This document shows, one piece after another, positions 30,001 to 33,000 of a stretch of 55,663 bases of DNA. A program made the position numbers. The stretch is from a virus (taxonomy: Duplodnaviria > Heunggongvirae > Uroviricota > Caudoviricetes). Position 1 is the stretch's first letter; the number at the start of each line of letters is the position of its first letter. The stretch spans positions 1-55,663 of IMG/VR virus record IMGVR_UViG_2713896798_000010; one strand, written 5' to 3'.

Positions 30001-33000
30001 TGCCCGGCATCCCTGAGCCAGATATGACGCTTGAGGGAAACACGTGCACTGCCACTGACACGACGCTGTTCACCCTTCAGAATATTCACCCGCCGGGTGT
30101 TCAGAGTTTTGATTCTGCCCGGTAACGTACGAAGCACAGCCATGTAAAATCCTCGCCATATAGCTTGTCACCAGAGGAAAGAAAATGTCATCGAAAAACC
30201 AGCCCCGCAGAACAACAACCCGCAACATCCGATTTCCAAACCAGATGATTGAACAAATTAACATCGCTCTTGACCAGAAAGGTTCAGAAAATTTTTCTGC
30301 GTGGGTCATTGAATCTTGCCGCCGGGAGCTGGCAGCAGACATAAAATATGCCCGTCAGTTGACTATAAAAAAGAATGATACACAGTATGCTCTGCGATGG
30401 CTGTTCATATAACTATTTCTTTATATTGCTGAATTTATAAAAACTCACAGACATTAGCTGTATTAATTCCGAATTGAAATAATCAGCCATATAGAATAAG
30501 AATAAAGCATAACAATAATAATCTTCTACCCAATCAGTACATTACTGCTGTGACTCCAACACGGCAGTTTTTTTATTGAACAGATTCCAGTTTCTTCCAC
30601 CATCGCACCGGACGGGCGACCATGAGGGGAGAACGCCGCGCTCCGTTTACGCGGTAAACCCCGGTGTGTATCGTTTTTGATTATCCCCGCACACTCTCGC
30701 AGAGGAGTCTCCCTGTCGGGCTGCGGTCTCTGTTAATGCAGGAATACGGCGACGATACGGCGCATCAGCAAAACTTAGTTCAGGCACTGAGTGCGGATAT
30801 AGTCCTGTACCCCTTCCAGCTGCTTCTGCATTGTCATCAACCGTTCTCTGAGGATGAAATAATCCCGTTCAGCGGTGTCTGCCAGTCGGGGGCCGGTTGC
30901 ATTATCCACGCCGGAGGTGCCGGTGGCTTCACGCACGGTACCGGAGCAGGTGGCGTTGATCCGCAGGCGCTTACGACCAGCGGCAACATCAGCACGCAGA
31001 GTTTCATTTTCAGCTCTCGCATCGGCTAACTCCCTCGAGTATTTTGCATCGAGCGCAGCAACATCACGCTGGCGCACCTGCATGTCAGTAATGGTGGCAT
31101 TCGCCTGTTCCAGCTCTCTGGCTTTTTTATCGCGCTGCGCTTTGTAGGTGAGCGCGTTGTCACGGTAATGGTTTGTTGCCAGCCACAGCGCACCACAGCC
31201 AACCGCCAGGACAATAATCACCACACACAGAACACGGTTCATCTCTCTTTCACCCCACCAGTCCCGATAACGTCAGGACTCGCCAGGCGGTGGAAAAGAA
31301 AATGGCAACCAGCATGACTAAAAATGAAATGCCGACAAGTACACAGAGGCTCTTCACCAGCGTTATGAGTTTATCTGATATCATTAGCCACCCCATCAAT
31401 CCGCCTTTGTTATTTTCCCTTTGCCTGTATCAGCCAGGACAAAATCAATCAGCATATTCGCTTCATTTACCAGCGTACGGATTTTTGATACATGCGCGGC
31501 TTTAACCTGTTTCCACTCATTCAGCCCGGTAGCAAACACACTGGCAATGTTTTTATCCCGTTTCATGTCAGCACAAGCCTGGTTGAGTTCTTCCATCACG
31601 CTCATTTTACGGGGATTAACGACAAAACCCTTCGTCCAGTACTCGTAAAGAACATCGTCGCACTCTTCCTGATACCGGATGACCTTATCGCGGATTTCGG
31701 GTTTTACTTTGTTGGGATTAATGGTTTGTAGCCAGCCGGCAAGTTTTCGAAGTGGCATGGACACCATATTGCGTTGTTTCCCATCCTCAGCAACCATAAC
31801 GATTTCCGTTATAGTTGACGCAAAACGCTGTCTTAACTTAGCCAACTGTGATTGCCAGGCCAGCCCCATCCCCGCAACGACAGGTTTCATGGGAACGTAT
31901 GGTTCGCCATTATGGTTAACTACATAAAGAGAGTTGCCGTGAAACGGCACGGCCATCATATTCATCGGTTATTTCCTTTTAGTGATGAACCTTGTCTCAC
32001 AGGAATCCAGCCCACAGAAAGGCACCGACAGCCAAACCGGTATCCTCAAGGGTCATCCTGAAAGGTTCTGTGTTGTGAGATGCGCGTGAGATGCGCAGAA
32101 ATGACAAAGGCATCATTACGGTGCCTGAGTGTTAAACAACTGTTTTGACTTTATTCACTTACATTTTGCCAATTTGCAGGATTTCGTGTTATCCGTCCAT
32201 GTAAGCAAACCTCATTTTTCAGCAAAATATTCTTCTTATCTGTCAATTCCCCAGCACGCCAGCGCGCTCTCCTGGTCACGCCGTGAGACCTGACCGTAGC
32301 AGTTGTTTGAGCGAATACGGCAGTCTCTGCCACCGTCCTTAATCCACCAGCGAATCGCTTCGCAGGCACCTTTTCGATCACCTGCATTAATTCGTCTGTA
32401 AAACGTCGACGGGAAACACTTACCGGGACCAATGTTGTACGGACAGAATGACGCGATCCCCGCTTTCTGGGGTTCGGTCAGCGGCACTTTGATGTTTTTC
32501 TCCACCCATGCCAGCGCCTTATCACGCTCAATGGCGTTAACCCGGTCGCATTTTTCCTTCGACAACTTCATGCCCGGAACGACAGGTTTACCATCCACCA
32601 GGATGGCACCGCGGCAGATGGTCCAGATACCCGCACCATCACGGTATGCCGTGGTGTGGTTACCTTCCTTTTCATCCAGAAACTGGTCGAGGATTTCAGG
32701 CGCAGACGCCCCTGCACCAATCAGCGCCAGAACGGCAGCCGACAGGCCGTATCTGATTTTTGCGTTCATGGATATTTATCAGGGTTTATCGATTTCAAAT
32801 CCCTGGATATGTTAAGTCTTCAGGCCAGCGGTGGAGTCTTCAGAGAACCCGTAATTATTCCCGGTAGTTTTCCTCTGTAGGTTATCAACACATCCTGCGC
32901 CTCTAAAATTACGGGACGCTTTTCCGGTAACGGACCATCCCCTTCACATAACCCGGCAGCAACATCCATGAAAAACTGCTTCGCCTGCTTTTTCGCCTCC

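Follow-up and report, generated by a model that had tools for sequence, protein, structure and literature searches.

The stretch of DNA analyzed here, referred to below as the window, is the whole 55,663 nucleotides of IMG/VR record IMGVR_UViG_2713896798_000010, a BP-4795-like lambdoid prophage in which one small gene of the YlcI/YnfO (DUF3950) family is read against its neighbors between the lysis cassette and the packaging genes. The original prediction for this locus described a plus-strand open reading frame (ORF) of 75 codons with a good ribosome-binding site, divergent from an HNH endonuclease gene, and this description is borne out: the ORF begins with ATG and encodes 75 residues, the sequence GAGGA lies 6 nucleotides 5′ of the start codon, and 41 bp separate the starts of the two genes, which are on opposite strands (Table 1). 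The predicted surroundings are also correct. On its right the ORF is followed by Rz/Rz1, an Ant-like gene, the lysozyme gene, a gene of the YdfR family and the holin gene; on its left, beyond the HNH gene, come the small (TerS) and large (TerL) terminase genes, and all of these are on the minus strand. The further claim that this is the only plus-strand gene of the late region holds for protein-coding genes between ~11.2 and 36 kb, as judged by the RefSeq annotation of a 97.5%-identical prophage. It does not hold for the late region as a whole, as sodC (10462-10989, plus strand), encoding a Cu/Zn superoxide dismutase and constituting a second opposite-strand moron, lies among the tail genes, and the small RNA AgvB (35667-35728, plus strand) is encoded at the start of the late region. 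The 1.4 kb around the ORF are 99.3-99.5% identical to Shiga toxin (Stx)-converting phages such as BP-4795 and to prophages of O157:H7, in whose records the ORF is annotated as "DUF3950 domain-containing protein" or "YlcI/YnfO family protein", and the 75-residue product is identical to the RefSeq YlcI/YnfO family protein of O157:H7 strain PV15-279. Between Q and the esterase gene, the window prophage itself lacks any gene of stx size.

A homology search for domains of unknown function or for ribbon-helix-helix (RHH) families had been proposed along with the prediction. When run, it assigned the protein to DUF3950 (Pfam PF13132; 62.6 bits, E = 3e-17, cut-off 25), to the NCBIfam family YlcI_YnfO_N (NF041551; 39.2 bits, cut-off 30) and to PHROG 949 (E = 5e-32), and relatives of the protein match Arc-like repressor profiles, as described below. 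The ORF is also conserved, with 658 homologues in a large protein collection. The family block is present in 4184 of 5426 complete Escherichia coli genomes (~77%), in up to 12 copies per genome, and the full-length allele of the window in only 563 of them; a distant subfamily occurs in Pectobacterium, Dickeya, Serratia, Xenorhabdus, Klebsiella, Morganella, Providencia, Gilliamella and Orbus. The gene is thus a member of an already catalogued family of unknown function, and its presence in the window is ordinary.

That the ORF is a genuine, conserved protein-coding gene under purifying selection is shown by 39 distinct DNA alleles of its core, drawn from Enterobacterales and Orbales and reaching down to ~32% amino acid identity. 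The DUF3950 frame contains no stop in any of the 39, and its ratio of nonsynonymous to synonymous polymorphism (pN/pS) is 0.20 in the satellite-type core and 0.29 in the lambdoid-type core, with third codon positions dominating the variable sites (22/14/36 and 18/7/31 by codon position). The best antisense frame has pN/pS values of 0.32 and 0.43 and carries stops, the wobble positions being common to both frames. An antisense ORF of 90 residues in the window (30070..30342, minus strand) was accordingly rejected as a coding sequence, given its higher pN/pS and its stops in other alleles.

Conservation within the protein is unevenly distributed. In E. coli, residues 1-49 hardly vary from allele to allele and follow the pattern MSxKNRxRRTTTRNIRFPNQMIEQINIALxxKGSxNFSAWVIExCRRxL, while past residue 50 many unrelated tails are found. 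Across 51 sequences of the family, R16, F17, P18, F37, S38, W40, V41 and C45 are invariant and I15 and N36 are retained in at least 90%, and the window protein carries both family motifs, I15-R16-F17-P18 and N36-F37-S38. DNA homology between the window and lambda, Qin, Chlobot and Escherichia albertii extends exactly from the ATG (30185) to codon 47 (30325), a block of 141 bp with ~85% identity in which the differences are mostly synonymous, and the sequence on both sides of it is unrelated. Because the homology is bounded at the ATG and the flanks are unrelated, the conserved entity is a domain of ~50 residues and not a control region; the variable C-terminal tail is probably dispensable.

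Several lines of comparison make it likely, though not proven, that these first ~50 residues adopt an RHH fold. The strongest evidence comes from a PHROG scan of 51 family members, in which 21 members match a HicB-like family through its DNA-binding segment and 10, 3 and 3 members match three Arc-like repressor families (228, 582 and 6506; best E = 1.3e-4). These matches cover essentially the whole domain, for example positions 9-55 of a 59-position profile. In a profile alignment with P22 Arc (hhalign), the segment N14-I-R-F-P18 is placed on Arc N11-L-R-W-P15 in the expected register (P = 0.009), and the invariant residues R16, F17, P18 and N36-S38 coincide with positions that in RHH proteins contact DNA or form the core. 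AlphaFold models of the monomer show residues 1-18 extended, followed by helices at 19-32 and from 34 onward, and the Foldseek matches to both the full-length and the 55-residue model, although nonsignificant, all belong to proteins of RHH or RHH-like type (NikR, through its DNA-binding domain, and plant TCP domains). The same PHROG scan bears on the idea that the gene is an orphan antitoxin-like remnant of a HicAB- or RHH-type toxin-antitoxin pair, as the most frequent secondary match is a "toxin-antitoxin system HicB-like" family (21 of 51 members, best E = 2e-5). That match is limited to the DNA-binding segment of the profile (positions ~99-143 of 342), though, no plus-strand ORF of at least 30 residues lies between position 30413 and the terminator, and no toxin gene is consistently adjacent in lambda, in K-12 or in the satellites described below, so that we give this origin only slim credence.

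The original prediction further implied that the gene has a promoter of its own and might be expressed in the lysogen, a reading that is partly supported. Its ribosome-binding site, its composition and its terminator agree with an independent transcription unit, while a convincing sigma-70 promoter was not found. The ORF and its 3′ flank make up a low-GC island (28-43%, versus 53-60% on both sides), which ends at an intrinsic terminator with a predicted folding energy of -17 kcal/mol (z = -4.2), matched by none of 200 shuffled sequences. As the gene lies opposite to the late operon, a separate promoter is logically necessary. An Rfam scan of 29.4-31.3 kb gave no match. Downstream of the candidate promoter, CACCCGcCGGGTG forms a palindrome (30089-30101) that was considered as an operator and dropped, as it is not conserved in the related phage Lys8385Vzw. 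Taken as a whole, the gene and its 3′ flank look like a self-contained, moron-like unit set antisense in the late operon, with a terminator and an atypical composition of its own.

Such an arrangement raises the question of whether the protein matters at all, or whether the 141 bp of DNA or its transcript is what is selected, as an antisense RNA or through transcriptional interference that damps late read-through into the HNH and terminase genes. The unit does oppose the late transcript, a 5′ leader starting within the HNH gene would overlap the HNH start, and the conserved block is sharply bounded. In K-12, where ylcI is likewise opposite to the late genes, ybcW-ylcI is listed as a convergent overlapping transcript pair (excludon) in at least 50% of RNA-sequencing samples (PMC12288877), which is also the one, indirect, sign that a gene of the family is transcribed. 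The substitutions are nonetheless of the protein type, as the pN/pS values, the third-position bias and the lack of stops in the 39 alleles attest, and the start codon and ribosome-binding site are kept. We therefore consider a purely antisense function very improbable, although an antisense role could exist alongside the coding role.

Table 1. Coordinates of the YlcI/YnfO unit and adjoining features in the window, and of long antisense ORFs in satellite loci
Feature	Position	Strand	Basis or remark
YlcI/YnfO-family (DUF3950) gene, 75 residues	30185..30412	+	Profile matches
Shine-Dalgarno sequence GAGGA	30174..30178	+	Direct sequence reading
Conserved domain, codons 1-49	30185..30331	+	Basic N-terminal arm, predicted beta-strand N14-I-R-F-P18, helix 19-32, helix from 34
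Hypervariable C-terminal tail, residues 50-75	30332..30409	+	Modelled as low-confidence helix extension
AT-rich 3′ untranslated stretch	30413..30543	+	~28-33% GC; no ORF, no Rfam match
Intrinsic terminator	30544..30575	+	9-bp stem, 7-nucleotide loop, T7 run (30544-30568 plus T7)
Weak candidate sigma-70 promoter, CTGACA-17-CAGAAT	30055..30083	+	Inside HNH coding region; 9/12 consensus
Alternative candidate -10, TAAAAT	30145-30150	+	
HNH endonuclease gene, HK97-type packaging module, divergent neighbor	29778..30143	-	Pfam HNH, E = 7e-7
Probable cos region between HNH and TerS genes	29488..29777	.	Inferred from HK97-type genome organization
Rz spanin gene, last of lysis cassette, convergent with YlcI/YnfO unit	30775..31242	-	
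Rz1, embedded in Rz	30837-31022		
Long antisense ORFs, satellite loci	L005 4634-5608 (called gene); L063, L064, L067, L077, L083, L086-L088, L090, L093-L097	-	

Together with the satellite homologues described below, from which the repressor function is inferred, these observations point to a DUF3950 protein that acts as an Arc-like RHH DNA-binding repressor and is made from a moron-like unit independent of the late operon, a reading to which we assign a probability of roughly 55%. The basic N-terminal arm and the short beta-strand N-I-R-F-P would precede two helices, with the strand pairing with that of a second subunit and entering the DNA major groove. The product would be a small sequence-specific repressor whose production does not depend on Q-dependent late transcription and could take place, for instance, in the lysogen. 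Close parallels are Arc and Mnt, the RHH repressors of the P22 immI region, which are small phage proteins (53-83 residues) with an N-x-R-aromatic-P strand motif that aligns in register. As with the window gene, mnt is a regulator-type gene embedded in a late region and read against its neighbors. The window gene differs in that it has no adjacent ant gene under its evident control and, in the lambdoid context, no operator that could be found; DUF3950 also has no Pfam Arc or RHH match, and its dimerization and DNA binding are only predicted.

The same anatomy could belong to a moron for lysogenic conversion or host takeover that does not act through DNA but, for instance, by inhibiting a protein of the host or of a competitor, by counteracting defense or by excluding superinfection, in which case the likeness to Arc would reflect a small helical protein-interaction module. 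Low GC content, a terminator of its own and the opposite strand all fit. In lambda, DLP12 and Qin the gene is next to further accessory genes on the opposite strand, and its slot is that of bor, which is expressed in the lysogen. The lambda morons bor and lom are likewise autonomous late-region units with atypical composition and their own terminator, and bor shares both the opposite strand and the interval between Rz and cos, but both encode outer-membrane proteins with demonstrated lysogen expression, whereas the window product is predicted to be a cytoplasmic DNA-binding domain. In favor of such a role, too, no operator was found near the lambdoid copies and the evidence for the RHH fold is indirect. 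Against it stand the matches of relatives to Arc-like repressor profiles across the whole domain, the placement of the invariant residues at RHH DNA-contact and core positions, the covariation of operator-like repeats in satellites (see below), and a PADLOC scan in which no defense model was matched. On balance, we regard a moron of this kind as unlikely.

An indication of what a DUF3950 protein might bind comes from homologues outside lambdoid phages. In Klebsiella, Morganella, Serratia, Xenorhabdus, Pectobacterium and Gilliamella, these are found within integrase-AlpA-antirepressor-...-primase elements, that is, phage-inducible chromosomal island (PICI)/P4-like satellites, in which the DUF3950 gene is the single opposite-strand gene and diverges from an operon of an icd-like gene and primase. 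The divergent region of ~180 bp contains two 13-bp repeats of the form GGTGnnnnnnCAC (GGTG..CAC) that are exactly 23 bp apart and overlap a leftward promoter of good quality, such as TTGACG-16-TATAAG in locus L009, and a third copy directly follows a TATAGT -10 element ahead of the DUF3950 gene. Loci L005-L011 and L057-L098 have two or three of these element-specific repeats, at distances of ~60-125 and 25-40 bp from the DUF3950 start on its upstream side. The repeat center varies from element to element and tracks the six residues that precede the I-R-F strand: the arm STTKG is paired with the repeat GTGCACA(A/T)ACAC in four genera (example, GGTGCACAAACAC), and the arm S-x-Y-K-G with GTGTTTAAACAC in three (example, GGTGTTTAAACAC). 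Among 24 distinct loci, arm distance and repeat distance are correlated (Mantel r = 0.75, p = 2e-4), more strongly than the distance of the rest of the protein and repeat distance (r = 0.52), and the correlation persists when the rest of the protein is controlled for (partial Mantel r = 0.70, p = 2e-4). The covarying arm residues are those at base-contacting positions in the Arc alignment. This pattern suggests that the satellite DUF3950 protein is a repressor with the three repeats as its operators, an arrangement that resembles the master repressors Stl of Staphylococcus aureus pathogenicity islands and Rpr of Gram-positive PICIs in that a single gene is read away from the excision/replication operon and repeats cover both promoters. 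The likeness holds for the satellite homologues only; Stl and Rpr are larger helix-turn-helix proteins, and the repressor role of satellite DUF3950 is a predicted one.

Two further features of these loci deserve mention. Long minus-strand ORFs (254-511 residues) cover the DUF3950 gene in many of them, and the possibility that DUF3950 is merely their antisense shadow was examined and rejected; the long ORFs appear to be spurious, arising where the short icd-like gene reads through into an open antisense frame, and they are broken in close relatives and of low complexity in their antisense part. Separately, the icd side of the divergent region has a conserved hairpin, AAGCCCGG-N16-CCGGGCTT, at ~130-170 bp upstream from where the DUF3950 gene starts and ~20 nucleotides before the ribosome-binding site of the icd-like gene (L005-L098). 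It has no match in Rfam and might be a leader or immunity RNA element.

A number of observations weigh against the repressor reading. As regards the fold, model confidence is moderate, the predicted local distance difference test (pLDDT) score averaging 75 over the full-length protein (82-89 in its core blocks) and 68 over the 55-residue version, the beta-strand, which could form only in a dimer, is not formed in the monomer models, and the Foldseek E-values for both models (1.7-7.6) are nonsignificant. The best RHH-type match of the window protein itself is weak (E = 0.035), a Pfam scan of 14 diverse members at E-values up to 10 returned no RHH family, and PDB chain sequences yielded nothing better than chance matches, whether searched with the single protein or with a profile. 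As regards regulation, the best sigma-70 promoter candidate has 9/12 consensus positions, which is no commoner than in shuffled sequence. The window contains no array of 13-mer repeats spaced by 21-24 bp anywhere and no operator-like array near the gene. The upstream regions of the window-type and lambda-type copies share no operator, only two short, equally spaced k-mers in an otherwise unalignable stretch of 35% identity. That the homology to lambda-type copies starts at the ATG, with no shared upstream operator, argues against simple autoregulation in cis in lambdoid phages. The covariation of arms and repeats in satellites could in part reflect the shared ancestry of linked sequences. Finally, no experimental or functional study of the YlcI/YnfO family was found in the literature. 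Given the lack of a repeat array and of a shared upstream motif despite a nearly identical arm, the lambdoid protein probably acts elsewhere, or not on its own promoter.

The position of the gene is conserved, the same slot and opposite orientation being seen in BP-4795, O157:H7, lambda, DLP12, Qin, Lys8385Vzw, Chlobot and E. albertii. In K-12, ylcI (DLP12) and ynfO (Qin) each lie 389 bp from a Nu1-type gene, nohD and nohA, respectively, on the strand opposite to the late genes. Their products are 80-88% identical to the window protein over the N-terminal ~50 residues and their position and orientation are the same, but the C-terminal tail and the upstream DNA differ, and the neighbor there is cos plus nohA/nohD, whereas in the window it is the HNH gene of an HK97-type module. 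Phage lambda itself carries a 64-codon ORF of the family (J02459 complement(48109..48303); locus L003, 200-394), 199 bp from the right cohesive end and the last ORF before it. This ORF, whose product is identical to K-12 YlcI, has no annotation in J02459. It is homologous to the window over codons 1-47 and lies opposite to the late genes, although it has a weaker ribosome-binding site and a different tail. The gene list of a genome-wide CRISPR interference study of essentiality in lambda does not contain it (PMC10695390); the "orf-64" of the lambda literature, considered as a candidate for the same ORF, was rejected, being a different gene, lambdap73 (PMC10695390). In database searches, contigs of ~3.5 or ~48 kb of lambda DNA occur in many "genomes" assigned to unrelated organisms (Streptomyces, Cohnella, Pseudomonas, Flavobacterium and others), where they are probably sequencing control DNA, and reads of this kind have left numerous copies of the lambda ORF with frameshifts and other errors in protein databases.

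In the HK97-type packaging modules of the window, BP-4795 and Lys8385Vzw, the HNH gene lies between the ORF and cos. In the probable cos region of the window, repeats of the GTTAACATTT type are clustered in both direct and inverted orientation (29558-29686), two of them 23 bp apart; these are probably binding sites of the small terminase. The region also contains a G/C-rich stretch (29715-29777). One could envisage an accessory packaging factor, that is, a small DNA-binding protein that would modulate cos cleavage or packaging by acting at cos, close to it, or on the small terminase. Every lambdoid context examined has the gene immediately inside the packaging end, whether this is of Nu1 type, with cos inside the 389-bp spacer (lambda, DLP12 and Qin), or of HNH/HK97 type (window), and in one satellite protein, P0199 (L098 4714-5103), DUF3950 is fused to a stretch very similar to the N-terminal DNA-binding part of the window TerS. 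The conserved position beside cos and this fusion are the reasons for which a packaging role is kept as a minority alternative. Yet the strand opposite to the late and packaging genes implies no coexpression with them, the satellite copies adjoin replication rather than packaging genes, the GTTAACATTT repeats have no counterpart near the lambda copy despite an almost identical arm, and the P0199 fusion comes from a single metagenomic contig. A packaging function thus appears quite improbable.

Elsewhere in the window, several features were noted that lie apart from the YlcI/YnfO unit. Just downstream of Rz, a 120-bp block (30645-30765) is 79-88% identical to the same place in Chlobot, E. albertii and other lambdoid prophages, with differing flanks. 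An IS66-family element (24470-27168), with three minus-strand ORFs corresponding to HTH_Tnp_1, TnpB_IS66 and a DDE transposase, separates the large terminase and major capsid genes. An 8-bp overlap in the alignment to a related prophage at this site suggests a target duplication, and the prophage may be defective. Near the tail-fiber end, a TccP/EspFU-like type III effector ORF (1475-2368, plus strand) contains five EspF-type proline-rich repeats (Pfam EspF, E = 2.5e-135). A related prophage (L017 4898-6492) carries an Ant / Arc / Arc-family immI-like module among its tail genes that the window does not have (compare 12473-12509). Rfam matches comprise the AgvB anti-GcvB small RNA (plus strand) and STnc100 (minus strand) at 35667-35919, just downstream of the Q region, a C4 antisense RNA / isrK / c4-a1b1 module in the nin region (39074-39275, minus strand), and the lambda cIII thermoregulator (48965-49023).

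The family ranks among the commonest uncharacterized prophage genes of E. coli, and an unannotated ORF of the identical family sits beside cos even in lambda, the best-studied phage. A wider proposal, which we hold to be doubtful at present, is that DUF3950 proteins form a class of miniature Arc-like immunity repressors that has gone unrecognized. Those of Gram-negative PICI/P4-like satellites would be the missing element-specific repressors, keeping the icd-primase operon off via three arm-matched operators, and the lambdoid copies, including that of lambda, would be regulators expressed in the lysogen. If this is true, the lambdoid copy beside cos might silence the HNH gene, terminase or cos cleavage, or take part in cross-talk with resident satellites. 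The Arc-like repressor lead also bears on a point left open in the literature, namely, whether Gram-negative phage-inducible islands have any repressor.

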